A stretch of DNA of 13,352 nucleotides. Source: a virus (lineage: Duplodnaviria; Heunggongvirae; Uroviricota; Caudoviricetes). The notes beneath the pieces are model-generated. The model was not told where the DNA came from. It was given only the letters and a program-made list of their open reading frames with translations, and made no database searches. Below, piece by piece: positions 1 to 13,352 of this stretch; the first letter of the stretch is position 1; each line of letters begins with the position of its first letter. The stretch is taken from the IMG/VR virus record IMGVR_UViG_2690316028_000011; one strand, written 5' to 3'. The translations under genes and the position numbers were made by a program.

Positions 1-69
1 AAGATATGATGTGATGGCATTTTATAAAGTTATTTTTTGAAGTGTAAGATTATACGATATTTTTAGCTA

Positions 70-100
70 CGCCAGAATAATTGCTGGCGTTTTTCTTTTT
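70..100 (+). terminator. Intrinsic terminator upstream of the holin gene (possibly the tR'-like late terminator, or the terminator of an upstream gene)
   Basis: Perfect 6-bp stem CGCCAG (70-75) / CTGGCG (84-89) with an 8-nt loop, followed by TTTTTCTTTTT (90-100). Not followed by a T-run on the opposite strand. Confidence 0.55.
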
Positions 101-190
101 GAATAGATGTTCGGGCCTTACGCTAATGTAACTTCTTTCCTTCTTCGAACCAAACCGTGTACACCATCCGTTATCTGCGGAGGTGAGGCT

Positions 191-406
191 ATGAAATCCA
201 TGGATAAGTTAACAACGGGCATCGCCTACAGCACCTCTGCAGGCAGTGCTGGCTACTGGTTTTTACAGTTGCTCGATAAAGTCACGCCCTCACAGTGGGC
301 GGCAATAGGTGTATTGGGTAGTCTGGTATTTGGCATGCTGACGTATCTGACAAACCTTTATTTCAAGATTAAAGAAGACAGGCGTAAGGTTGCGAGAAGA
401 GAGTAA
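191..406 (+). CDS. essQ: Phage-21-type class II holin (pinholin) with dual-start motif M-K-S-M
   Basis: 71-aa product [25 protein letters not shown]...[17 protein letters not shown] matches the S21/EssQ pinholin pattern with two predicted TM segments. Strong SD GGAGGTGAGG lies just upstream of the ATG at 191. The six-frame ORF (107..406) extends upstream, but the RBS supports 191. Confidence 0.85.
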
Positions 407-410
407 TCCA

Positions 411-962
411 ATGACTCAAGACTATGAACTGGTTGTGAAAGGAGTTCGCAATTTTGAGAATAAAGTGGCGGTAACTGTAGCCTTACGGGACAAAAAACAC
501 TTTGACGGTGAAATTTTTGACCTGGACATCTCGCTGGACCGTGTTGAAGGTGCCGCGCTGGAGTTTTATGAGGCAGCAGCCAGAAGGAGCATCAGACAGG
601 TCTTCCTGGATGTTGCTGCCGGGTTATGTGAAGGGGATGAGCAGTCGTCGGAAAAGCGCCCCATAATTTTAGAGGCGCAGAATGTGTGGATAACCTACAA
701 AGGAAAGCTACCGGGAAGAATTACTGGTTCTCTGAAGACGCCACCGACGGCATTGCGGTCAGAAAAAGATGATATTGAATCGCCCATTGAAAAACTGGAG
801 GGCAGCGTCGCTGATCTGAATAAAAAATTGTCGGTGCTGATTCCTTCTGAAGATGAAAAAAAACGCCGCGATGAGCAGTTTGCGGCGTTTTACGATTATT
901 GCATTGAAGTTACTCGCAGGAATTTTGTGAAGATTTTTGAGGAGGGTAAATCTCTTCAGTAA
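411..962 (+). CDS. Uncharacterised acidic protein (183 aa) inserted between holin and endolysin
   Basis: ORF 390..962 opens with TTG; the first ATG is at 411, preceded by AGAGAG and immediately after the holin stop. Composition looks like normal coding sequence. No family recognised. Confidence 0.5.
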   Translation: MTQDYELVVKGVRNFENKVAVTVALRDKKHFDGEIFDLDISLDRVEGAALEFYEAAARRSIRQVFLDVAAGLCEGDEQSSEKRPIILEAQNVWITYKGKLPGRITGSLKTPPTALRSEKDDIESPIEKLEGSVADLNKKLSVLIPSEDEKKRRDEQFAAFYDYCIEVTRRNFVKIFEEGKSLQ

Positions 963-1170
963 GCTTATTGGCGGACGCTGCAATTAATTCAGGAAGGTCC
1001 GCAAGGTCATCTGTCAGTGGATATGATGAAAAATCGGCGGCAGTTCTGTTAAGAAGCGCTTTAACTAATTCCTTTTCCTTCTCCGGCAACAAGTTGATTA
1101 GAGCTACGACTGCTTGCCTGAGTGCGATTAAATCAGCAAAAGTTTGTTTTGGTAGATTTGTGTAATCCAT
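910..1170 (-). CDS. Uncharacterised small protein (86 aa), convergent with the preceding ORF
   Basis: ATG at 1170 on the minus strand is preceded by GAGG about 7 nt upstream. Its 3' end overlaps the 411..962 ORF by 53 bp. This position corresponds to where ydfR sits in K-12 Qin, but I cannot confirm identity. Confidence 0.45.
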   Translation of the reverse strand: MDYTNLPKQTFADLIALRQAVVALINLLPEKEKELVKALLNRTAADFSSYPLTDDLADLPELIAASANKLTEEIYPPQKSSQNSCE

Positions 1171-1283
1171 AGTCGCCTCTGTGTTTATCAGATTGACATC
1201 CTCCTCCCGCCAGTGCCCATCACTGGTGAGGTAAGATTTAACATATCCGGGGATTTGAAGCCGATAAATCCTGATAAATATCC

Positions 1284-2311
<1,028 letters not shown>

Positions 2312-2494
2312 ATTAATATTAAATCGGATTATTTTTAGCGCTGAATGTGAAATTTAAATAAAAAGGACTCTTCCATGAGTCAAAATCCTTGAAATCTTAA
2401 GGGTAAGATAAAAGGTCATTAGACAGAATGACACGTTTTATTAATAAATAAAGCTATTGTTTCATTCGTGTGTTTTTCTTTACAAAAGTAATCC

Positions 2495-2523
2495 TTGCTA
2501 TGGTTGGTTAATCATGCGTTAAT
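2495..2523 (+). promoter_or_regulatory. Candidate sigma70 promoter for cspI with long AT-rich 5' UTR
   Basis: TTGCTA (2495-2500), 17-bp spacer, GTTAAT (2518-2523; compare cspA -10 CTTAAT). Would give a 5' UTR of roughly 145 nt, typical of the cspA family. Sequence-pattern inference only. Confidence 0.3.
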
Positions 2524-2674
2524 GGTGTTCTGGTTTGTTACAAAATTATCTGAAGCAGTCATTGTTATAATTTTATTATTTGTACCTCTTGAGATTTCCT
2601 TGTTGGTTTTTCTCTCTGATATTTTTTTTCGGACCATTCTGCCCAAGGGCTAACTTCTTCAAAAGGTAATAATG

Positions 2675-2887
2675 ATGTCTAACAAAATGACTGGTTTAGT
2701 GAAATGGTTTAACCCTGAAAAAGGTTTTGGTTTCATCACGCCGAAAGATGGTAGCAAAGATGTGTTTGTCCATTTCTCAGCTATTCAGAGCAACGATTTC
2801 AAAACGTTAACTGAGAATCAGGAAGTCGAATTTGGTATTGAGAACGGACCTAAAGGCCCCGCGGCTGTTCATGTTGTGGCACTTTGA
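2675..2887 (+). CDS. cspI: Cold-shock protein, CspA family
   Basis: 70-aa product [38 protein letters not shown]... carries the RNP1 (KGFGFI) and RNP2 (VFVHF) motifs. SD AAAGG with cspA-like spacing. The six-frame ORF begins one codon earlier at 2672. Confidence 0.9.
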
Positions 2888-3086
2888 GGTAGAAAATATT
2901 ACAAACCATATTCACTTTAGATGCCCGTGTTGCCATGGTTCTCAGTATAGAACATCATCTTTTGATGTTTCTGACAGGAATCCTTTCGGGGCAAAATGTA
3001 TCTTTTGTAAATCAATGATGATTACATTTGATAATATTTCACAATACTTAAATGTTAGCCGTCTGTCGTTAGATTTAAGAAAGTGA
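2871..3086 (+). CDS. Possible small zinc-ribbon protein (71 aa) immediately downstream of and overlapping the cspI 3' end
   Basis: Product contains C-P-C-C ... (about 20 aa) ... C-I-F-C, a zinc-ribbon-like arrangement. The ORF stop at 3086 is followed 7 nt later by a strong intrinsic terminator. The RBS is weak and the ATG at 2871 is the only ATG start, so this stays low confidence. Confidence 0.25.
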
Positions 3087-3092
3087 AAATGA

Positions 3093-3114
3093 AGGCTCCT
3101 TCGGGAGCTTTTTT
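3093..3114 (+). terminator. Intrinsic terminator
   Basis: Stem GCTCC (3095-3099) / GGAGC (3104-3108) with TTCG tetraloop, followed by TTTTTT (3109-3114). Confidence 0.5.
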
Positions 3115-3158
3115 GCTTAGTGTCTAGTCGATGGATACTCACATATTACGGTAACATT

Positions 3159-3389
3159 ATGAAAAAAATAATAGTTTTTTTTAACTCTGAACCAGCAATG
3201 GTAGTGCCAGTGATGACCGGAGTTAACACCATCATGCGTGAATATCCAAATGGCGAAACAACACACCTCACTGTAATGGCTGCAGGGTTTCCATCTCTGA
3301 CCGGAGATCATAAAGTCATTTATGTAGCAGCGGATCGACATGTAACTTCAGAAGAAATTCTGGAAGCAGCAATGAGACTCTTGAATTGA
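3159..3389 (+). CDS. ynfN: Small prophage protein, YnfN/YmcE-like (partner gene upstream of gnsB)
   Basis: ORF 3120..3389. ATG at 3159 (MKKIIVFFNSEP...) gives 76 aa. An internal ATG at 3234 gives the 51-aa product MREYPNGETTHLTV..., which matches the length I recall for K-12 YnfN. The true start is uncertain and the RBS is weak for both. Confidence 0.5.
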   Translation: MKKIIVFFNSEPAMVVPVMTGVNTIMREYPNGETTHLTVMAAGFPSLTGDHKVIYVAADRHVTSEEILEAAMRLLN

Positions 3390-3561
3390 TTTGATTCTAA
3401 TGCATTGATAATAAATGATAATCATCTTTATCTGTTTGTGTGAAATTTAGACCGTCGTATGTTGATTATTGCGATGTTTCATCTTATCTTTTATACGTTT
3501 GCTCCATATAATTGACACTACTGTGTACCAGGAAAGTCATAACAGACTAAAAGAGGAAATG

Positions 3562-3735
3562 ATGAACATTGAAGAGTTAAAAACAAAAACAGAAGCAGAT
3601 ATTTCTGAATATATAACAAAAAAAATCATTGAGCTTAAGAAAAAGACCGGGAAAGAAGTTACCAGTATCCAGTTTACTGCACGGGAAAAAATGACTGGTC
3701 TTGAAAGCTATGATATCAAGATTGATTTAATCTAG
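3562..3735 (+). CDS. gnsB: GnsA/GnsB family small protein (57 aa)
   Basis: MNIEELKTKTEADISEYITKKIIELKKKTGKEVTSIQFTAREKMTGLESYDIKIDLI, preceded by SD AAGAGGAAA. Matches the GnsA/GnsB family of prophage-encoded proteins. Confidence 0.85.
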   Translation: MNIEELKTKTEADISEYITKKIIELKKKTGKEVTSIQFTAREKMTGLESYDIKIDLI

Positions 3736-3797
3736 TCTGTTTATAGTATTAGCATCAATTTCTCATCAGATGCTATTCAACAATACAAATTACCCAT

Positions 3798-3823
3798 AAA
3801 CCTCGTTTTTACGGGGTTTTGTT
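3798..3823 (+). terminator. Intrinsic terminator after gnsB
   Basis: AAACCTCG (3798-3805) pairs with CGGGGTTT (3812-3819), one G-U wobble, loop TTTTTA, followed by a T-rich tract. Confidence 0.45.
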
Positions 3824-4030
3824 ATATTTAAACATTACCGAATAGGTATAAATCTCGATTGTCGATGGTATTGGTTGTGTGACAATACCTAATCTTTCCG
3901 GTATGCGTGAAGAGAATACAAACGACAGATTATGTAAGGGAAACGCGCTGAATCTTTCACTCTTTCATGCTGAGTGATTTGACGTTATATTTTTAGCCGT
4001 AAGTGAAGAGCAAACGCATGGAGCGACAAA

Positions 4031-4237
4031 ATGCATAAAGATCAATACACTGATGCCCCCTCCCAGGAGCAGGTTCGTGTAAAAACTATGCTTAATAGCA
4101 CCATTTCGATGGGTTACCCGGATGTTGTAATTGCATGTATAGAACATCAAGTGTCTCTGGAAGCATTCAGGGCAATTGAGGCCGCGTTAGTAAAGCACGA
4201 TAAGAATACGAAGGATTATTCCCTGGTGGTTGACTGA
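4031..4237 (+). CDS. Hypothetical small protein (68 aa)
   Basis: ATG preceded by GGAG 7 nt upstream. No recognisable family. Lies in the AT-rich cargo region between gnsB and cos. Confidence 0.4.
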
Positions 4238-4603
4238 TCACCATAACTGCTAACCATTCTGACCATTTCACAAGTGACAGAGTCAATATCGTATTCTGTC
4301 ACTGTCAGGCTAATACAGCAATGCAATTCAACTACAGCAATGCCTCGTATTTAGGTGAATTTACAATATCGTCCAGTTCGGATGCCGGCTGCATTTCTGA
4401 AGATAAGGCATTTCGGTTCTCGTATTTTCCCCTCATGCTCGTCAGTCCTGCGCGTAGTAAGAAACAGGACACTCACACTAATTTGTGTGGGCATGCAGTG
4501 ATGTCCTTCTGAATTATCCCCATGCCATTATGTAAAGCTCTGTTACAGATGCTCGTCACGGTTGTCAGGCTGTCGGGTCCTCCCAGTGAGGGGCCCTGCC
4601 ACG

Positions 4604-4615
4604 GGGCGGGAGCGT
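4604..4615. other. cosN-like cohesive-end site (lambda-type cos)
   Basis: ACGGGGCGGGAGCGTCGCGG (4601-4620) aligns with the lambda cos junction ACGGGGCGGCGACCTCGCGG (differences fall within the 12-nt cohesive end), followed by a cosB-like AT-rich region with a 7-bp perfect inverted repeat CTGTAAT/ATTACAG (4662-4683). The small terminase gene starts about 175 bp downstream, as in lambda. Confidence 0.6.
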
Positions 4616-4789
4616 CGCGGAAAAAGGCTAGTTTTTGAAATTTTATTCGTCATCACCACTACTGTAATTGATTGGTATTACAGTGGTTTTATTTTTATGG
4701 TGTCGATTCTGATTGTTTTTTGTTCATCGCTAACACCGTTTGCCTAAAGTTGTTCGCAAGATGCATGTTTAAAACATTCTGGAGCGGGT

Positions 4790-5284
4790 ATGGATCGAGA
4801 GTTAAAAAATCTGACGCTGAATATCAGTCAACTGGCGGCATTGTCAGGTGTACATCGCCAGACTGCTGCGGCAAGGCTGCAAAATCTACCCGTTGCAGGG
4901 GGGCATGAAAGCAACCTCAAGCTTTATCGGGTGGTTGATATTGTGTCGGCATTTCTGGCATTACCACCGCCGGTTGCAGAAGGCGAAATGGACGCGCATG
5001 AGCGCAAAGCCTGGTATCAGTCTGAACGTGAGCGTCTTAAGTTCGAACAGGAAACGGCACAACTCATTCCGGCCAGTGATGTCAGACGGGAGTTTGCCAT
5101 CTGGGCAAAAGCGGTCGTGCAGGTGCTGGAGACATTACCGGATATTCTTGAACGTGACTGCGGTCTGCAGCCTGCCGCTGTGAGCCGTGTTCAGTCCATT
5201 ATTGATGATCTGCGCGATCAGATAGCCCTGCGGGTGACTGAAGCAGGTGCGGATGATGAGGAGGAATTACAGCAGGAGGAGTAA
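4790..5284 (+). CDS. Terminase small subunit (Nu1-like DNA packaging protein)
   Basis: 164-aa product with an N-terminal HTH-like segment (LNISQLAALSGVHRQTAAARL) and acidic C-terminus. Sits directly downstream of cos; its stop overlaps the start of the large terminase gene (TAATG at 5282-5286). SD GGAG upstream. Confidence 0.7.
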   Translation: MDRELKNLTLNISQLAALSGVHRQTAAARLQNLPVAGGHESNLKLYRVVDIVSAFLALPPPVAEGEMDAHERKAWYQSERERLKFEQETAQLIPASDVRREFAIWAKAVVQVLETLPDILERDCGLQPAAVSRVQSIIDDLRDQIALRVTEAGADDEEELQQEE

Positions 5285-5919
5285 TGCTGAATCAGGAAAC
5301 CGCAAAGGCAGCACGAACCGATTCAGGTTATATCCTTCGCGCACCGAGACGAATGCGGGTTGCTGATGCCGTTGCTCAGTATATGCGGGTGCCCATGGGG
5401 GCAGGGAACTCAGTCCCGTGGGATCCGCTGGTGGCACCGTATGTTATTGAGCCTATGAACTGCCTGGCCTCGCGTGAATACGACGCAGTGATATTTGTTG
5501 GCCCGGCACGAACCGGCAAGACTATCGGCCTGATTGACGGCTGGGTGATTTACAACGTGATTTGCGATCCTGCGGATATGCTGATCATTCAGATGACAGA
5601 GGAAAAAGCCCGCGAACACTCCAAAAAACGACTCGCCAGAACGTTTCGCGTCAGCCCGGAAGTGGTCAGTCGCCTGAGTCCGAACAAAAATGACAACAAC
5701 GTTTATGACAGAACATTCCTTGCTGGCAACTACCTGAAAATCGGCTGGCCGTCAGTCAATATCATGTCCTCATCAGATTATAAATGCGTCGCGCTGACGG
5801 ATTATGACCGTTTTCCGGAAGATATTGATGGCGAGGGGGATGCCTTCTCTCTTGCCTCAAAACGTACCACCACATTTATGTCCAGCGGTATGACGCTGGT
5901 GGAGAGTTCCCCCGCTGGC
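5284..5919 (+). pseudogene. Terminase large subunit (gpA-like), N-terminal fragment truncated by deletion
   Basis: Walker-A-like VIFVGPARTGKT and gpA-family ATPase-domain pattern. Homology ends about codon 205-210; the ORF then reads out of frame into gpI-derived sequence and stops at 5988. A full gpA is about 640 aa. Confidence 0.75.
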
Positions 5920-6433
5920 CATGCAGATCCCGGCGTTTCGTCAGAAACTGAGCGACGGCTGGTACCAGGTACGCATTGCCGGGCGTGATGCAGGTGAAAC
6001 CGAATTGTCTGCCCGTCTTAATGAGCCGCTGGCAAATGGTGCCGTGATCCACATCGTGCCGCGTCTGGCGGGAGCTAAAAGTGGCGGTGTGTTTCAGGTG
6101 GTGCTGGGGGCGGCGCTGATTGCGGTGGCATGGTGGAACCCTGTGGGCTGGCTGGGTGCCGCGGCTGTATCGGGCATGTATGCGGCAGGGGCCAGTATGA
6201 TCCTGGGCGGAGTGGCGCAGATGCTGGCACCGAAAGCCAGGACGCCCACGGCAGCAAGTACAGATAACGGCAAACAGAACACCTATTTCTCCTCACTGGA
6301 TAACATGGTTGCCCAGGGCAATGTTCTGCCTGTTCTGTACGGGGAAATGCGCGTGGGGTCACGCGTGGTTTCTCAGGAGATCAGCACGGCAGACGAAGGG
6401 GACGGTGGTCAGGTTGTGGTGATTGGTCGCTGA
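5912..6433 (+). pseudogene. Lambda gpI-like tail assembly protein, C-terminal fragment (fusion partner of the terminase remnant)
   Basis: From LAMQIPAFRQKLSDGWYQVRIAGRD... to ...VVSQEISTADEGDGGQVVVIGR aligns with the C-terminal roughly 175 residues of lambda gpI. The N-terminal ~45 codons are missing and a stop lies in frame just upstream at 5891. Confidence 0.8.
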
Positions 6434-6452: not shown

Positions 6453-6473
6453 AACCGCCTGCGGGCGGTTTTG
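6453..6473 (+). terminator. Stem-loop with T-tract between the gpI remnant and the J-like gene (terminator-like; function uncertain)
   Basis: AAACCGCC (6453-6460) / GGCGGTTT with loop TGCG, followed by TTTTG. The equivalent hairpin exists in lambda between I and J. Confidence 0.35.
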
Positions 6474-6493
6474 TCGTTTATGGAGCGTGAGGA

Positions 6494-9469
6494 ATGGGTA
6501 AAGGCAGCAGTAAGGGGCATACCCCGCGCGAAGCGAAGGACAACCTGAAATCCACGCAGCTGCTGAGTGTGATTGATGCCATCAGCGAAGGGCCGGTTGA
6601 AGGTCCGGTGGATGGATTAAAAAGCGTGCTGCTGAACAGTACGCCGGTGCTGGACAGTGAGGGGAATACCAATATATCCGGCGTCACGGTGGTGTTCCGG
6701 GCAGGTGAGCAGGAGCAGACTCCGCCGGAGGGGTTTGAATCCTCCGGCTCCGAGACGGTGCTGGGTACGGAAGTGAAATATGACACGCCGATCACCCGCA
6801 CCATTACGTCGGCAAACATCGACCGTCTGCGCTTTACCTTCGGTGTACAGGCACTGGTGGAAACCACCTCAAAGGGTGACAGGAATCCGTCGGAAGTCCG
6901 CCTGCTGGTTCAGATACAGCGTAATGGTGGCTGGGTGACGGAAAAAGACATCACCATTAAGGGCAAAACCACCTCGCAGTATCTGGCCTCGGTGGTGGTG
7001 GATAACCTGCCACCGCGCCCGTTTAATATCCGGATGCGCAGAATGACGCCGGACAGCACCACAGACCAGCTGCAGAACAAAACGCTCTGGTCGTCATACA
7101 CCGAAATCATCGATGTGAAACAGAGCTACCCGAACACGGCACTGGTCGGCGTGCAGGTGGATTCGGAGCAGTTCGGCAGCCAGCAGGTGAGCCGTAATTA
7201 TCATCTTCGCGGGCGTATTCTGCAGGTGCCGTCGAATTATAACCCGCAGACGCGGCAATACAGCGGTATCTGGGACGGAACGTTTAAACCGGCATACAGC
7301 AACAACATGGCCTGGTGTCTGTGGGATATGCTGACCCATCCACGCTACGGCATGGGGAAACGTCTTGGTGCGGCGGATGTGGACAAATGGGCGCTGTATG
7401 TCATCGGCCAGTACTGCGATCAGTCAGTACCGGACGGCTTTGGCGGCACGGAGCCGCGCATCACCTGTAATGCATACCTGACCACACAGCGCAAGGCGTG
7501 GGATGTGCTCAGTGATTTCTGCTCGGCGATGCGCTGTATGCCGGTATGGAACGGGCAGACGCTGACGTTCGTGCAGGACCGACCGTCGGATAAGGTGTGG
7601 ACCTATAACCGCAGTAATGTGGTGATGCCGGATGATGGCGCGCCGTTCCGCTACAGTTTCAGCGCCCTGAAAGACCGCCATAATGCCGTTGAGGTGAACT
7701 GGATTGACCCGGATAACGGCTGGGAGACGGCGACAGAGCTTGTTGAAGATACGCAGGCCATTGCCCGTTACGGTCGTAACGTCACGAAGATGGATGCCTT
7801 TGGCTGTACCAGCCGGGGGCAGGCGCACCGCGCCGGGCTGTGGCTGATTAAAACGGAACTGCTGGAAACGCAGACCGTGGACTTCAGCGTGGGTGCGGAA
7901 GGGCTTCGCCATGTACCGGGGGATGTCATTGAAATCTGCGATGATGACTATGCGGGTATCAGCACCGGCGGGCGCGTGCTGGCGGTGAACAGCCAGACCC
8001 GGACGCTGACGCTCGACCGTGAAATCACGCTGCCATCCTCCGGTACCACGCTGATAAGCCTGGTTGACGGTCAGGGTAATCCGGTCAGCGTGGAGGTCCA
8101 GTCCGTCACCGACGGCGTGAAGGTGAAAGTGAGCCGTGTTCCTGACGGCGTTGCAGAATACAGCGTGTGGGGGCTGAAGCTGCCGACGCTGCGCCAGCGC
8201 CTGTTCCGCTGCGTGAGTATCCGTGAGAACGATGACGGCACGTATGCCATCACCGCCGTGCAGCATGTACCTTCTGCCCGTAAGGTGAATGGTAAGGCGC
8301 TTTCAGCGGATATAACACTGACGCCGAAAGATATTGGTACGCTTAACTCAACAACAATGTCATTCAGCGGTGGTGCTGGTTGGTTCAAATTAGCAACGGT
8401 AACCATGCCACAGGCGAGTTCTGTTGTTTCAATTACGTTGATTGGTGGCGCGGGATTTAACGTGGGGTCACCTCAACAGGCAGGTATATCTGAACTTGTT
8501 TTGCGTGCAGGTAATGGTAATCCGAAGGGGATTACTGGTGCTTTATGGCAGCGCACATCGACAGGGTTTACAAATTTTGCCTGGGTCAATACATCTGGTG
8601 ATACTTACGATATTTACGTTGCAATCGGAAATTATGCGACTGGTGTAAATATTCAATGGGATTATACCAGTAATGCCAGCGTGACGATTCATACGTCACC
8701 AGCATATTCTGCTAATAAGCCGGAAGGGTTAACGGACGGTACAGTTTATTCACTCTATACGCCATCAGAGCAGTTTTATCCGCCTGGCGCACCAATCCCG
8801 TGGCCATCAGATACCGTTCCGTCTGGCTATGCCCTGATGCAGGGGCAGACTTTTGACAAATCTGCATACCCGAAACTTGCAGCCGCTTATCCGTCAGCCG
8901 TGATCCCTGATATGCGTGGCTGGACGATTAAGGGCAAACCCGCCAGTGGTCGTGCCGTATTGTCTCAGGAACAGGACGGCATTAAATCGCACACCCACAG
9001 CGCCAGCGCATCCAGTACGGATTTGGGGACGAAAAACACATCGTCGTTTGATTACGGAACCAAATCCACGAATAACACCGGGGCGCATACCCATAGTATT
9101 AGCGGGACTGCAAATAGTGCCGGTGCGCACCAACACAAGAGTTCCGGTGCATTTGGTGGCACGAACACGAGCATTTTCCCTAATGGTTATACCGCGATTT
9201 TAAATCTAAGCGCGGGGATTATGAGCACAACAAGCGGTAGTGGCCAGACTCGTAATGCAGGGAAGACATCATCAGATGGTGCTCATACCCACTCGCTGTC
9301 CGGCACTGCTGCAAGCGCAGGCGCACATGCACATACTGTCGGTATTGGTGCTCATACGCACTCCGTTGCGATTGGTTCACATGGACACACCATCACCGTT
9401 AACGCTGCTGGTAACGCGGAAAACACCGTCAAAAACATCGCATTTAACTATATTGTGAGGCTTGCATAA
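6494..9469 (+). CDS. Chimeric tail tip / tail fibre protein: lambda J-like N-terminal ~593 aa fused to a side-tail-fibre-like C-terminal domain with His-rich repeats
   Basis: N-terminus [24 protein letters not shown]... through ...[10 protein letters not shown] is near-identical to lambda host-specificity protein J. After nt ~8272 the sequence diverges, GC content drops, and the C-terminus carries repeated G-A-H-T-H-S / AHAHT / SHGHT motifs like those of Stf/T4 gp37-type fibres. Strong SD GGAG/GAGG upstream. Confidence 0.9.
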
Positions 9470-10044
9470 TGGCATTCAGAATGAGTGAACAACCACAGAC
9501 CATAAAAATTTATAATCTGCTGGCCGGAACTAATGAATTTATTGGTGAAGGTGACGCATATATTCCGCCTCATACAGGTCTGCCAGCAAACAGTACCGAT
9601 ATTGCACCGCCAGATATTCCGGCAGGCTTCGTGGCTGTTTTCAACAGTGATGAGGCATCGTGGCATCTCGTTGAAGATCATCGGGGAAAAACCGTCTATG
9701 ACGTGGCTTCCGGCGACGCGTTATTTATTTCTGAACTCGGTCCGTTACCGGAAAATGTTACCTGGTTATCGCCGGAAGGGGAGTTTCAGAAGTGGAACGG
9801 CACAGCCTGGGTGAAGGATACGGAAGCAGAAAAACTGTTCCGGATCCGGGAGGCGGAAGAAACAAAAAACAACCTGATGCAGGTAGCCAGTGAGCATATT
9901 GCGCCGCTTCAGGATGCTGCAGATCTGGAAATTGCAACGGAGGAAGAAATCTCGTTGCTGGAAGCATGGAAAAAGTATCGGGTATTGCTGAACCGTGTTG
10001 ATACGTCAACTGCACAGGATATTGAATGGCCAGCACTGCCGTAG
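9469..10044 (+). CDS. tfaQ: Tail fibre assembly protein (Tfa)
   Basis: 191-aa product [39 protein letters not shown]... matches the TfaQ/TfaR family. Start overlaps the stop of the upstream fibre gene (TAATG), indicating translational coupling. Confidence 0.9.
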
Positions 10045-10141
10045 GGTAAAACATATAAATTCTATAATTAGATGTATCTTTCCATTTACGGCAAGGAAGG
10101 GGGCTTGGAACACGTAAAGCATCTCACACCGAGATTATTTT

Positions 10142-10732
10142 TTATATGTCAGGTGTCTGAAGTTTTGCTTTGGCTCTTAAAATGGTTTGCCGCGAGGTTT
10201 TGAATTCCCGGGCAATGGCACTTATACTTACACCTGACTTAATTCGTTCGAATACCACCTGTTTCTGTTCTTCATTTAACACAGGTGGTCGACCAAAACG
10301 TTTCCCTGCGCCGCGGGCTCTTACTATCCCGGAATGAGTGCGTTCAAGTAAAAGGTCTCGTTCAAATTCAGCGACTGCTGAAATTACTTGCATCATCATT
10401 TTTCCTGTTGGACTGGTCAGGTCAATGCCACCCAATGCTAAGCAATGCACTCTGATACCTGTTTCGGTCAGTTGTTCCACTGTTTTCCTGATATCCATTG
10501 CATTACAACCAAGGCGATCCAGTTTTGTCACAATCAATTGATCACCACATTTCAGGCGAGCAAGCAACCGGTTAAAACCAGGACGCTCACTGGTTGCTGC
10601 TGAGCCGCTAATGTGTTCTTCGATTATTTGCTGAGGTTTGATTTTAAAACCTGCACTTTCGATTTCCCGGCGTTGATTTTCGGTGGTCTGATCCAGCGTT
10701 GATATCCGACAGTAAGCAAAAATTCGAGACAT
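10142..10732 (-). CDS. pinQ: Serine recombinase, DNA-invertase (Pin) family
   Basis: 196-aa product [20 protein letters not shown]... with the catalytic-serine motif (R-I-S-T-x-D-Q) and a C-terminal HTH ([18 protein letters not shown]). Matches PinQ/PinR. Convergent with tfa. Confidence 0.9.
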
Positions 10733-11049
10733 AGTGAGACTCTATTCGAAATTGGTGTTCATATCATAATGCATCTCAGAAAATAATTATGATTATTTTT
10801 GTGCATATTTGTATGTACACGTTCGAAAATAAACGAATGCGTATGCAACCCCGTAATTTTTGGTGAGACCCAAAATCGATTTTGTGAAAAATGGCTTTAA
10901 CTCGGTTTGTTTTTCGAGTTCCGGGCGGACTCAAGGAAGAAGAATAGTGTTGCGTGTTATTTTAACCAGATTTCAAGTTGTTTGGACGTGGAAAAGTGGA
11001 GCAAAATGTTGTTAAAGTGGAAAAATGATAAAAAAGTAAGTTTATTATA

Positions 11050-11283
11050 TTACATTTTACCATTTAAATTTTGGTTGTCTTTAAGAACTGATATCGCTGT
11101 TTGTAATAATTCTTTGTTATCCAGCCATGATTTTTTCTTTATGTTTCCTTCAATGTAATCAAGCAATGTTCTGGTATTAATAGGTCTTCCCTGTTTTGCT
11201 ACTTCCACTACAGCATCCCCTAGGATAATTCTTACTTCAGGAAGCTGCGCAGGGAACCACTTTAGGGTGTCTTTTGATTTCAT
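11050..11283 (-). CDS. ydfK: Small prophage protein YdfK/YnaE family (cold-shock-induced in K-12)
   Basis: 77-aa product MKSKDTLKWFPAQLPEVRIILGDAVVEVAKQGRPINTRTLLDYIEGNIKKK... The six-frame ORF extends to 11316 but the internal ATG at 11283 matches the known family start. Confidence 0.85.
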   Translation of the reverse strand: MKSKDTLKWFPAQLPEVRIILGDAVVEVAKQGRPINTRTLLDYIEGNIKKKSWLDNKELLQTAISVLKDNQNLNGKM

Positions 11284-12068
11284 GAAGATATTCCTTAAAA
11301 TATTATTGATTTTCATTGCGATATTGTATGTCTGATTCAGGATATGTTGACTTATACATCGGTTTTGTCTGGGTTATTGGATATGCCAATCCCTAATTTT
11401 ATTAGGGCATGACTAAAAATGCTGAATATGATAAGGAGAGAAGTGATTATCAGTATGCTGTTCATATAGCCTCGAATTAGTAATGTGTTATATATGATAT
11501 AGTTGACAATTTTTATCTTGGGTGTTTTTAAAGTTCGTAGATAAACATTGTCGTTTCAGGTATACAGGAATGCTAGCAGGTGGCAGCAAAAATCAGGCGG
11601 TTTATGGCGCAAGCTGAAGCGGCAACTGCAAACTATCTTATGCAGAGACTCTACACGGATTGGGTTTAAAAGTATACATAGATAACAGTTTTTATCTGAA
11701 AAAGAAAAATATCAAGGTGATATAGCCTATATGCCTTTGATGCGGAGGAATGACTGTGATGGGAGTGATGTATCTGAATAGTTGAAAAACCGCAGACACG
11801 CCTTATGCAAGAACGTGCTGCGGTTGGCTGGTAAATTTTTCGATAGTGTGAGTATTGAATGATTTCCAGCCGTTCTTGATTTTACGCATAAATCCATGAA
11901 AAAACTACTTATCTGTTGGGGAGTTTTTTTGGGGCATATATGGGACAGAAATAGGCCCCAGATAGACACTGAGATCGAACTTAGGATGCTTTTTAAAAAA
12001 TGCAACTATCTGAAAAAACCTAGAAAACGCCAAGGAAACCACAGGATGGGAAAAAACACCTGTGAATT

Positions 12069-13352
12069 ATGGATTTCCAGTTATATTCGCTCGGCGCAGC
12101 GTTAGTGTTTCATGAAATATTTTTTCCTGAATCATCAACGGCAATGGCGTTAATTCTGGCAATGGGAACCTATGGTGCAGGTTATGTGGCGCGTATTGTC
12201 GGAGCATTTATTTTCGGCAAAATGGGCGACAGAATAGGGCGTAAAAAAGTGCTCTTTATTACCATCACCATGATGGGGATCTGTACCACCTTAATTGGAG
12301 TGTTACCGACCTATGCACAGATTGGTGTTTTTGCCCCCATCTTGCTGGTGACGCTGCGTATTATTCAGGGATTGGGTGCAGGTGCGGAAATTTCCGGTGC
12401 CGGTACGATGCTGGCGGAATATGCGCCAAAAGGTAAGCGCGGAATTATCTCCTCATTTGTGGCTATGGGAACTAACTGCGGAACCTTAAGCGCAACGGCA
12501 ATCTGGGCCTTTATGTTCTTCATTCTCAGTAAAGAGGAACTGCTGGCGTGGGGATGGCGTATACCGTTCCTGGCGAGCGTTGTCGTGATGGTCTTTGCTA
12601 TCTGGTTACGTATGAATCTGAAAGAAAGCCCGGTCTTTGAGAAGGTTAACGACAGCAACCAACCGACAGCAAAACCTGCACCTGCTGGTAGCATGTTCCA
12701 GAGCAAATCCTTCTGGCTGGCAACAGGGCTGCGTTTTGGTCAGGCGGGTAACTCCGGTTTAATTCAGACTTTCCTTGCAGGCTATTTAGTACAGACGTTA
12801 TTGTTTAACAAAGCAATTCCAACAGATGCATTGATGATCAGTTCGATTCTCGGCTTTATGACCATTCCGTTCCTTGGTTGGTTATCCGATAAAATTGGTC
12901 GCCGGATCCCGTATATTATTATGAATACCTCTGCGATTGTGCTGGCGTGGCCAATGCTTTCTATCATCGTAGATAAAAGCTATGCCCCGAGCACCATTAT
13001 GGTTGCACTGATTGTGATTCATAACTGTGCGGTGCTGGGATTATTTGCTCTGGAAAACATTACCATGGCAGAAATGTTCGGCTGTAAAAACCGCTTTACC
13101 CGGATGGCTATTTCAAAAGAAATTGGTGGTCTTATCGCTTCCGGTTTTGGTCCTATCCTGGCGGGTATTTTCTGCACCATGACGGAATCCTGGTATCCGA
13201 TCGCCATTATGATCATGGCATATTCAGTAATTGGTTTAATCTCTGCGCTGAAAATGCCAGAGGTGAAAGACCGTGATTTAAGTGCGCTGGAAGACGCTGC
13301 GGAAGATCAACCGCGTGTTGTAAGAGCTGCGCAACCTTCCAGAAGTCTGTAA
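12069..13352 (+). CDS. ydfJ: MFS transporter (metabolite:H+ symporter family), N-terminally truncated at the prophage junction; likely non-functional
   Basis: 427-aa ORF with MFS signatures (GKMGDRIGRKK, multiple TM helices, WGWRIPF, LSDKIGRR). Compared with ProP-like homologues the first ~35-40 residues (first half of TM1) are absent. No convincing SD before the ATG. Stop codon coincides with the window end. Confidence 0.85.
   Translation: MDFQLYSLGAALVFHEIFFPESSTAMALILAMGTYGAGYVARIVGAFIFGKMGDRIGRKKVLFITITMMGICTTLIGVLPTYAQIGVFAPILLVTLRIIQGLGAGAEISGAGTMLAEYAPKGKRGIISSFVAMGTNCGTLSATAIWAFMFFILSKEELLAWGWRIPFLASVVVMVFAIWLRMNLKESPVFEKVNDSNQPTAKPAPAGSMFQSKSFWLATGLRFGQAGNSGLIQTFLAGYLVQTLLFNKAIPTDALMISSILGFMTIPFLGWLSDKIGRRIPYIIMNTSAIVLAWPMLSIIVDKSYAPSTIMVALIVIHNCAVLGLFALENITMAEMFGCKNRFTRMAISKEIGGLIASGFGPILAGIFCTMTESWYPIAIMIMAYSVIGLISALKMPEVKDRDLSALEDAAEDQPRVVRAAQPSRSL

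Follow-up and report, generated by a model that had tools for sequence, protein, structure and literature searches.

A single open reading frame of 991 codons at 6494-9469 of the window (the whole 13,352-nucleotide stretch of DNA analysed here) begins as the lambda tail tip protein J and ends as a lambdoid side tail fibre (Stf). The question is how such a gene was made and whether it still serves a phage or a host. We find that the fused gene is ordinary prophage debris and not a new receptor-binding design; the interesting part is its breakpoint. Our joint reading, to which we assign a probability of about 0.8, combines a deletion remnant, a recombination hot spot at a TA dinucleotide in stf and the probable action of a serine recombinase, for which a PinQ/PinR-type enzyme is the candidate and the least certain step. 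This hot spot, exact to the nucleotide, has shaped lambdoid prophage remnants in most E. coli genomes, the reference strain included.

Architecture of the J-Stf fusion and of its prophage

Homology searches divided the ORF into lambda J residues 1-592 and the last 400 residues of a lambdoid Stf, joined in frame. The first part is 98.3% identical to lambda J, aligns with the solved J chains PDB 8IYK and 9E7M and retains the N-terminal hub domains (Pfam FNIII-A_GpJ and Phage-tail_3, E = 9.5e-42 and 3e-43). Homology to J, a protein of about 1130 residues at full length, ends at residue 592, and the distal half with the C-terminal receptor-binding domain is absent. A preliminary description of this DNA had called the downstream part unrelated to J, and the search set beforehand as the refuting test of this point found no J similarity in the 400 residues (best E = 1.9). 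The AT-richer composition that it had reported past the junction was also evident, with GC content falling from 0.58-0.63 at 7350-8250 to 0.45-0.49 at 8250-8700.

The Stf part is about 99% identical to residues 588-987 of the 987-residue Rac-type Stf of an intact J-lom-stf prophage (L004). In the comparison with lambda's own Stf (orf-314) that had been proposed earlier, it is 69% identical to the C-terminus of that protein (E = 4e-108). The T4 gp37 tip (PDB 2XGF) matches residues 157-400 of the Stf part, its last 244 (E = 4.6e-82), with the HxH motifs all conserved; by this alignment the C-terminus is a direct homologue of the gp37 tip, and the earlier remark on gp37-like His-rich repeats points to real homology. 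The seven HxH motifs are found in homologues and align to 2XGF, and are therefore no local artefact. The proposed layout of a J N-terminus, a His-rich fibre tip and a translationally coupled Tfa likewise held, the next ORF being a Caudo_TAP protein whose start overlaps the stf stop in TAATG (9467-9471). Absent from the fusion are Stf residues 1-587, that is, the 'prophage tail fiber N-terminal domain', the Ala/Ser-rich shaft and the ATPKAVK repeats. The N-terminal domain of Stf attaches the fibre to the tail.

Mapping of the junction against L004 placed the end of J homology at 8271 and the start of stf homology at 8267, so that the position first given, about 8272, was correct within 1-5 nt. 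Window 6468-8271 corresponds to J and 8267-11827 to stf-tfa-pin of this intact prophage; the intervening 4.2 kb, with J residues 593-1132, lom and Stf residues 1-587, is gone. The crossover sequence is GCAGCATG-TA-CCGGAAAA in intact J and AATGGTCGGG-TA-CCTTCTGCC in intact stf, and the fusion joins J codon 592 (GCAGCATG-TA-CCGG) to stf codon 587/588 (AATGGTCGGG-TA-CCTTCT). The flanks of the fusion match the intact phage exactly, which indicates a simple internal deletion. The ancestral gene order was J-lom-stf-tfa-pin, and a single recombination event from the TA in J to the TA in stf removed 4.2 kb and kept the frame by accident. These alignments showed that the 991-residue ORF is, at the level of sequence, a deletion fusion of the front of J to the back of the neighbouring stf in a defective prophage. 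The suggestion that a different receptor module had been swapped in did not survive this comparison: the C-terminus is encoded by the 3' part of the phage's own stf, which is normally found 4.2 kb further downstream.

The prophage in the window, at the E. coli Qin locus, is lambdoid, defective and gutted (Table 1). Upstream of the fusion only remains of virion genes are present, namely a complete Nu1-like gene, A' fused to 'I, and then J'. Homology to intact A stops at 5914, 'I is 73% identical to lambda I residues 44-223 (tblastn), and the A'/'I junction is, as judged by three-way comparison, an ordinary illegitimate join of other than TA type. Pfam searches and contig context revealed no head, tail tube, tape measure, K, L or M gene left in the window prophage. 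The contig context is ydfJ-ydfI-ydfZ-ydfH-ydfG. In a sister Qin allele (L003), nu1 breaks off at 5016, where it meets the same TA of stf.

Table 1. Features of the window and the evidence for them
Feature	Position	Strand	Evidence
Nu1-like terminase small subunit gene (DUF1441), complete	4790..5284	+	Pfam PF07278, E = 2.7e-41
A', N-terminal fragment of terminase large subunit	5284..5914	+	Pfam GpA_ATPase, E = 1.2e-52
A'/'I deletion junction, CG microhomology	5913..5914		Three-way comparison of window, intact A (L257) and intact I (L054)
'I, C-terminal fragment of tail assembly protein I	5915..6433	+	Pfam Lambda_tail_I; tblastn
J', tail tip protein J codons 1-592	6494..8269	+	tblastn, Pfam, PDB
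GTACC common to J and stf	8267..8271		Homology overlap; crossover dinucleotide TA at 8268-8269
'Stf, last 400 codons of side tail fibre, module 'Sv1'	8270..9469	+	Identity, Pfam, PDB
gp37-like tip	8735-9466	+	Homology to PDB 2XGF
Collar domain	8786-8929	+	Pfam Collar, E = 1.5e-11
Seven HxH motifs (SHTHS, AHTHS, AHQHK, AHTHS, AHAHT, AHTHS, SHGHT)	8990..9388	+	Translation, gp37 needle-domain alignment
tfa, tail fibre assembly chaperone	9469..10044	+	Pfam Caudo_TAP, E = 3.6e-43; tfaQ/tfaR by annotation in relatives
PinQ/PinR-type small serine recombinase, candidate enzyme	10142..10732	-	Pfam Resolvase + HTH_7
ydfJ', host gene	12069..13352	+	Annotation of identical DNA in L003 and K-12; right end of Qin locus

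The stf TA dinucleotide as module boundary and hot spot

The stf-side breakpoint of the fusion, the TA at 8268-8269 (native AATGGTCGGG-TA-CCTTCT), was common to 33 different junctions, comprising 20 distinct non-stf left partners on module Sv1, 12 on module Sv2 and the nohA/stfQ join of K-12 MG1655. The left partners lie in nu1, A, B, E, Z, V, H, L, I, J, lom and an stf repeat, and the prophage's normal order is kept throughout. The same TA is a natural boundary at which a common left half (GGTCGGG-TA) meets two unrelated right-hand modules. These junctions showed that the stf TA separates conserved stf from variable C-terminal modules and is also a hot spot of many independent deletions and at least one reciprocal inversion. 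A breakpoint distribution anchored on the stf 3' end was confounded by the mosaic stf modules. Assembly artefact was rejected as a source of the junctions, which also occur in the finished genomes K-12, AJ1, RM10410, 027_SK3 and JX2; the 17-mer match at L336, in an unrelated phage, was taken as chance. The GGTCGGGTA site is absent from K-12 Rac stfR. Our literature search found no earlier description of the hot spot, a Salmonella 'pinR' preprint had no bearing on it, and the supplement of the PinQ paper contains no stf rearrangements (PMC12529663).

One rightward deletion was found, in locus L339, where the left half of this stf site is retained. Two loci from the same sample (L039 and L318) hold the two reciprocal junctions of one inversion, which abut at a single TA of the portal gene (reference L257) and therefore represent a conservative exchange with no duplication. 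The partner sites are themselves reused. The J592 site (GCAGCATGTACCGGAAAA) has three different right partners, in the window, in JX2 and in the strain H3 type, and the nu1 site GA-TA-CCGGGG (quasi-site GAACTGATACCGGGGTT) and the J822 site were each used repeatedly. A81 has recombined with the L-end site (L313), and quasi-sites also recombine with one another. The lambda-by-lambda junctions of this data set serve as a control: about 10 of 16 are ordinary non-TA joins, and each of these occurs once.

Intact partner sites were recovered in 29 cases; 24 have TA at the crossover and the other 5 differ by one base, against a TA background frequency of 2.9% in lambda late genes. Several match the stf site in TA alone, for example TGAA-TA-TCTC. 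The partners conform to a weak dyad consensus, CSGN-TA-NCSG, in which G stands at distance 2 from the core in 34 of the 58 half-sites (p about 1e-4), while distance 4 is occupied by C in 33 of 58 (p about 5e-6). The native Sv2 site fits this consensus on both sides and the Sv1 site on the left only, its right half being poor. Both the 2-bp core exchange and the conservative, reciprocal exchange of a serine-recombinase crossover site are found at these joins.

The Qin prophage of K-12 (nohA-stfQ-tfaQ-pinQ, b1548-b1545) lies by ydfJ at the same locus as the window, and its tfa-pin-ydfK-ynfT right arm is as in the window, at 98.8% identity. The 5' boundary of K-12 stfQ, another comparison proposed in the preliminary description, is a crossover at the homologous stf TA (GAGTGAATA-TA-ACCGCGCTGAC), like that of the fusion. 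The K-12 allele has as its left partner the overlap of nu1 and A in a lambda-type terminase, whereas Nu1, A', 'I and J' remain in the window. The two differ also in the fibre module, Sv2 in K-12 and Sv1 in the window, and the K-12 join is out of frame, unlike that of the window.

Origin of the joins and fate of the fused gene

The junctions lead us to infer that these events were catalysed by a serine recombinase, a conservative site-specific enzyme with a 2-bp crossover, which paired the stf site with quasi-sites. Taken alone, the junction in the window with its 5-bp GTACC microhomology would fit an ordinary microhomology-mediated deletion, and many other joins in these prophages are of the ordinary kind. 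Illegitimate recombination by microhomology deletion or replication slippage, in which no dedicated enzyme acts and the stf position is fragile or often broken, is nevertheless unlikely to explain the whole series. It is at odds with the use of one nucleotide position in 33 junctions, many of which have TA alone in common, with the excess of TA over background and the dyad consensus among partners, with the exact reciprocal inversion and with recombination between quasi-sites. A hairpin or cruciform at the stf site was rejected on DNA folding (z = 0.9). A pseudo-cos cut by terminase was likewise discarded: the native site agrees with lambda cosN in 9 of 12 positions, but 13 kb of DNA should by chance contain about 7 matches with up to 3 mismatches, and the cos of the window itself is different. 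Replicative or one-ended transposition was dismissed on the strength of the reciprocal inversion without duplication and the rightward deletion, and a tyrosine recombinase or gyrase on the 2-bp overlap, as against 6-8 or 4.

The product of the deletion is most likely an inert remnant, because the other virion genes are absent. A functional host-range chimera, in which a Stf/gp37-like tip replaces the LamB-binding end of J and confers a new receptor specificity after TfaQ-aided folding, would account for a reading frame unbroken across 991 residues, for halves that are each 98-99% identical to functional homologues and for the retention of the chaperone gene with its overlapping stop codon. The intact frame in a prophage stripped of the rest of the virion, on which the preliminary description had remarked, is real, but an adaptive meaning is not borne out: about 8 of the 33 joins at the stf TA site are in frame, as by chance, so the frame is not evidence of selection, and the strain H3 type, found in 7 complete genomes, uses the same J site in a sister junction that breaks the frame and is annotated as two pseudogenes. 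Also against a chimera are the loss of the head, tail tube, tape measure, K, L and M genes, the truncation of J at residue 592 of 1132 and of Stf by its N-terminal 587 residues, and flanks exactly as in the intact phage. The exact 991-residue protein (WP_060617316.1) is rare (a singleton cluster, 9 contigs), and the fusion is present in no INPHARED phage, where only normal stf genes occur. The host-range reading is largely refuted, and we give it almost no chance. Very unlikely, too, is that the Stf tip, alone or fused to J, has been exapted together with Tfa for a role in the host, such as the masking of phage receptors. Such a role has a precedent in the e14 chimera StfE2, a chimeric Stf made by recombination that is reported to mask receptors and block T2 adsorption (PMC12529663); moreover, of 5426 complete E. 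coli genomes, 5078 carry the Sv1 tip-tfa block, which every leftward deletion at the hot spot keeps. However, the tip is without an in-frame start at most junctions, no signal peptide or export route was identified in the J fusion, and vertical inheritance of old remnants can explain the wide distribution.

A candidate recombinase and comparison with known systems

A PinQ/PinR-type recombinase is the most likely catalyst of the TA crossovers, although its assignment is the least certain step of our reading. The candidate gene lies 1.9 kb downstream of the stf TA and is in cis both in the window and at the inversion; its product is about 36-38% identical to Cin and PinE and 100% identical to the 'DNA invertase' of phage HannyBb. 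Phage mEp460 likewise has the recombinase gene, together with the native Sv2 site. For PinQ, catalytic activity in vivo and action at the e14 pix sites have been reported (PMC12529663). The native stf TA site is unlike both the hix/gix/cix/pix consensus and these e14 sites, and a scan of the window that tolerated 3 mismatches detected no such consensus sequence. A CCTTCT match to e14 pix was set aside as non-homologous, since in e14 it is the non-coding strand that bears it. A pin gene lay downstream at 8 of 13 junction loci and at 28 of 78 native loci, which is not a significant difference. If a serine recombinase is responsible, the hot spot would provide a concrete DNA substrate for PinQ/PinR-type 'invertases', an explanation for the wide survival of Stf tip-Tfa-Pin cassettes and a simple assay for enzyme-driven prophage decay and tail-fibre module exchange. 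Only tentatively do we go further and propose that the stf TA is the natural target of 'orphan' PinQ/PinR enzymes and that exchange with quasi-sites scattered through the late genes is a major unnoticed route by which lambdoid prophages of E. coli are truncated; truncations would then nearly always leave an Stf tip-Tfa-Pin cassette, K-12 Qin being one example.

For Cin (P1, cixQ sites) and for Gin, Hin and Pin, a primary fibre-gene site at a constant/variable boundary recombines with degenerate secondary sites. The Cin/Gin family exchanges DNA at a 2-bp core and can resolve an occasional one-base mismatch in either direction, and the recombinase gene adjoins fibre and chaperone genes. The stf TA resembles these sites in its constant/variable boundary, its degenerate secondary sites, its 2-bp core and the adjacent recombinase gene, but it is unrelated to their 26-bp consensus, has a palindromic TA core and yields nearly always deletions, 34 to 1 over inversions, unlike a classical invertase. 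The invertible switches Mu G, P1 C and e14 P have an inverted site pair and alternative cassettes, and the stf locus is without both. No inverted partner site was found in the window and all loci have a single site; nor was flip-flop polymorphism seen, as 114 of the 115 left halves of Sv1 carry the native right side and, for Sv2, about 91 of 93 do. The stf site is therefore not a working invertible switch.

Int-promoted deletions of lambda have a fixed, exact endpoint at att and variable second endpoints at secondary att sites. The stf deletions are similar in having one fixed, exact end and variable ends at degenerate copies of the crossover; they differ in that the fixed point is inside stf and not at att, and in a core of 2 bp as against the 7-bp overlap of tyrosine recombinases. 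As for the protein, T4 gp37 and lambda Stf share with the fusion a homologous HxH tip and a following Tfa-type chaperone gene, whereas in the fusion this tip is carried on a J fragment and not on a fibre shaft.

Origin of the J–Stf fusion ORF

The window represents the Qin prophage locus in a strain of E. coli, with the host gene ydfJ at its right end. The two flanks (1-5016 and 8267-13352) share 99.5% identity with Qin of strain 027_SK3, and the draft genome GCA_001484375.1 carries the same DNA adjoining ydfJ-ydfI-ydfZ-ydfH-ydfG. The late region of this prophage has been gutted, with five blocks of genes or gene fragments remaining there.

Genes of the window and lambda late-gene partner sites
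Feature	Window position	Site sequence	Remark
Nu1-like gene	4790-5284		complete
A' (terminase A fragment)	5284-5914		joined to 'I
'I (tail assembly fragment)	5915-6433		
991-aa ORF	6494-9469		
tfa	9469-10044		
serine recombinase (Pin)	10142-10732		196 aa; minus strand
nu1 site		GA-TA-CCGGGG	
A81 site		CGGT-TA-TTCC	
L-end site		GTGAA-TA-TCTCCGG	
J822 site		AAGA-TA-ACCGAA	

The composition assigned to the 991-aa ORF in the preliminary description was borne out. The protein is J-like up to about 8272, residues 1-592 being lambda J (98.3% identity) and also matching solved J structures. The last 400 residues have no similarity to J, as had been claimed; they are 69% identical to the lambda Stf C-terminus and ~99% identical to that of an intact 987-aa Rac-type Stf. 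The reported GC drop at the join is from ~0.6 to ~0.47, and the His-rich repeats comprise seven HxH motifs (8990-9388). Alignment of the final 244 residues to the T4 gp37 tip (2XGF, E=4.6e-82) establishes the suspected likeness to gp37 as true homology. The coupling to tfa is evident from the overlap of the stf stop and tfa start in TAATG.

The proposed origin of the fusion, a different receptor-binding module swapped into J, did not hold. Compared with L004, an intact J-lom-stf-tfaR-pinR prophage, J homology extends up to 8271 and stf homology begins at 8267; the intact sites read GCAGCATG-TA-CCGGAAAA in J and AATGGTCGGG-TA-CCTTCTGCC in stf. These homology limits and intact sequences show that the ORF arose by a single internal 4.2-kb deletion, not by import of a module, with loss of J residues 593-1132, lom and Stf residues 1-587. 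The frame is indeed open, but this carries no weight, because about 8 of 33 junctions at the stf position preserve the frame, as expected by chance. Seven complete genomes, strain H3 among them, have an out-of-frame join between this J site and a different position in stf, with both halves annotated as pseudogenes. The exact protein, WP_060617316.1, forms a singleton cluster (9 contigs). As a remnant that a deletion left in frame, the ORF is of little interest in itself, and an adaptive swap is not supported.

Recurrent use of a TA site in stf

The breakpoint in the window, at 8268-8269, reveals a TA in lambdoid stf genes at which crossovers recur; the native left half of this site is GGTCGGG-TA. 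When other prophage remnants were aligned to the window junction, the right sequence was identical and the left sequences were unrelated, among them Nu1 (027_SK3), terminase A (RM10410) and the lom signal peptide (AJ1). Scanning IMG/VR with the right-hand 26-mer identified 20 distinct non-stf left partners. A second C-terminal module (Sv2, TA-(A/G)CCGCGCTGAC), unrelated to the one in the window (Sv1), also follows the native left half, with 12 more left partners. In E. coli K-12 MG1655, the nohA/stfQ boundary (within 1634885-1636367; GAGTGAATA-TA-ACCGCGCTGAC), homologous to window 8268, provides the 13th, in which Sv2 is joined to the nu1/A overlap from a terminase of lambda type. The partners come from nu1, A, B, E, Z, V, H, L, I, J, lom and an internal stf repeat; all stand in normal prophage order, indicating that the junctions are deletions.

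K-12 Qin (nohA-stfQ-tfaQ-pinQ) is the closest known object; it arose at this hot spot too, as a sister of the window locus. No description of the hot spot was found in the literature searched, and the site appears to be new. It is directly testable; K-12 Rac is no substrate for this purpose, since its StfR (1429049-1432411), a third fibre type, lacks GGTCGGG-TA.

As an internal control, about 10 of the 16 lambda-by-lambda junctions surveyed are ordinary non-TA joins, each unique. The second deletion of the window is of this ordinary kind: terminase A' is joined to 'I at 5913-5914 at a 2-bp CG microhomology, which cost the prophage every head gene and most of its tail genes.

Crossover signature and partner sites

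Intact partner sequence was recoverable for 29 junctions. The switch-point dinucleotide of the partner is TA in 24 of them and one base off in the other 5, against a TA frequency of 2.9% in lambda late genes; several partners have nothing beyond TA in common with the stf site. Pooled half-sites prefer G at distance 2 from the core (p ~1e-4) and C at distance 4 (p ~5e-6), as computed against all TA sites of lambda, giving the weak dyad consensus CSGN-TA-NCSG.

Only one of 115 left-half matches, contig L318, has a non-native right side. Its junction (72-73) is the exact reciprocal of that in L039 (4167-4168) from the same metagenome (IMG/VR sample 3300029469), the partners being the stf TA site and a portal-gene TA, GACGCTGGGCGCTG-TA-AGTGCCGTT. 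On the reference sequence L257, the two contigs abut exactly at the portal TA (~3552-3554), both inverted. This event is a conservative, reciprocal inversion. In another sequence (L339, ~9173), a rightward deletion has spared the constant part of stf with its left half-site and stops at a TA within tfa, GCTTCGA-TA-CAACAGGAGCC; a deletion can thus leave either half of the hot spot in place.

Partner sites also recur. The site at J codon 592, GCAGCATG-TA-CCGG (window 8260-8275), has three different right partners across genomes: the primary stf site in the window, the stf-repeat site GCTGGC-TA-ACGGGAAAT in strain JX2 (L330, 4165-4175), and the internal Sv1 site GGGAT-TA-CTGGTG (window 8533-8535) in the H3 type (L001, 8770-8780). 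The A81 and L-end sites are recombined with each other in L313, and the nu1 and J822 sites were each used more than once. In lambda (L126), the late-gene TA sites listed in the table (~697-700, 957-959, 14246 and 17967-17969) recur as deletion endpoints, and some of them recombine mutually. A terminase A fragment joined to an alternative-type stf at another TA-CCGG site (L152, ~3187 of the upstream extract; TTCTA-TA-CCGGAGTCGG) suggests that the TA-CCGG motif is in use outside the main hot spot too.

Further mosaic boundaries within stf occur at window ~8772-8786 (L004 6506/6520) and ~9260-9330 (L004 ~7000-7066). Each has a single alternative left sequence and thus resembles a module boundary rather than a deletion join. 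Many fibres share with the window Stf just the collar-to-tip part, or just the last 100-200 nt.

Proposed mechanism and candidate enzyme

The exact 2-bp core, single core mismatches resolved either way, a dyad tendency in the partner flanks, reciprocity and mutually pairing sites are together hallmarks of serine recombinases. Such an enzyme, acting on the primary stf site and on quasi-sites, probably underlies the stf TA events (probability roughly 0.7). Phage invertases such as Cin recombine at quasi-sites, which is the closest known mechanism. The 2-bp core does not fit the 6-8 bp overlap of tyrosine recombinases or the 4 bp of gyrase, and inversion without duplication excludes replicative transposition. 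A hairpin and a pseudo-cos at the site were rejected, as was assembly artefact, the junctions being present in finished genomes.

The serine recombinase could be the PinQ/PinR-type enzyme adjoining tfa, a tentative assignment suggested by gene position. This candidate has Resolvase and HTH_7 domains and ~36-38% identity to Cin and PinE. A recent paper demonstrates in vivo activity for a recombinase of this type, reporting inversions in e14 only (PMC12529663). Against the assignment, the stf TA site is unlike hix or pix, the association of pin in cis with the junctions is not significant, deletions predominate among the outcomes, and searches for an inverted partner site and for flip-flop polymorphism found neither. 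The stf TA system is also unlike the Mu, P1 and e14 switches: its site sequence is different, its core is palindromic, it has no second site or alternative cassette, and its outcome is not the same.

The window Pin itself shares ~36% identity with Cin of P1, and lambdoid phages that form plaques (HannyBb, Tritos, mEp460 group) carry a 'DNA invertase' with 100% identity to it. In those phages, which have no invertible segment, pin lies between tfa and attP/int.
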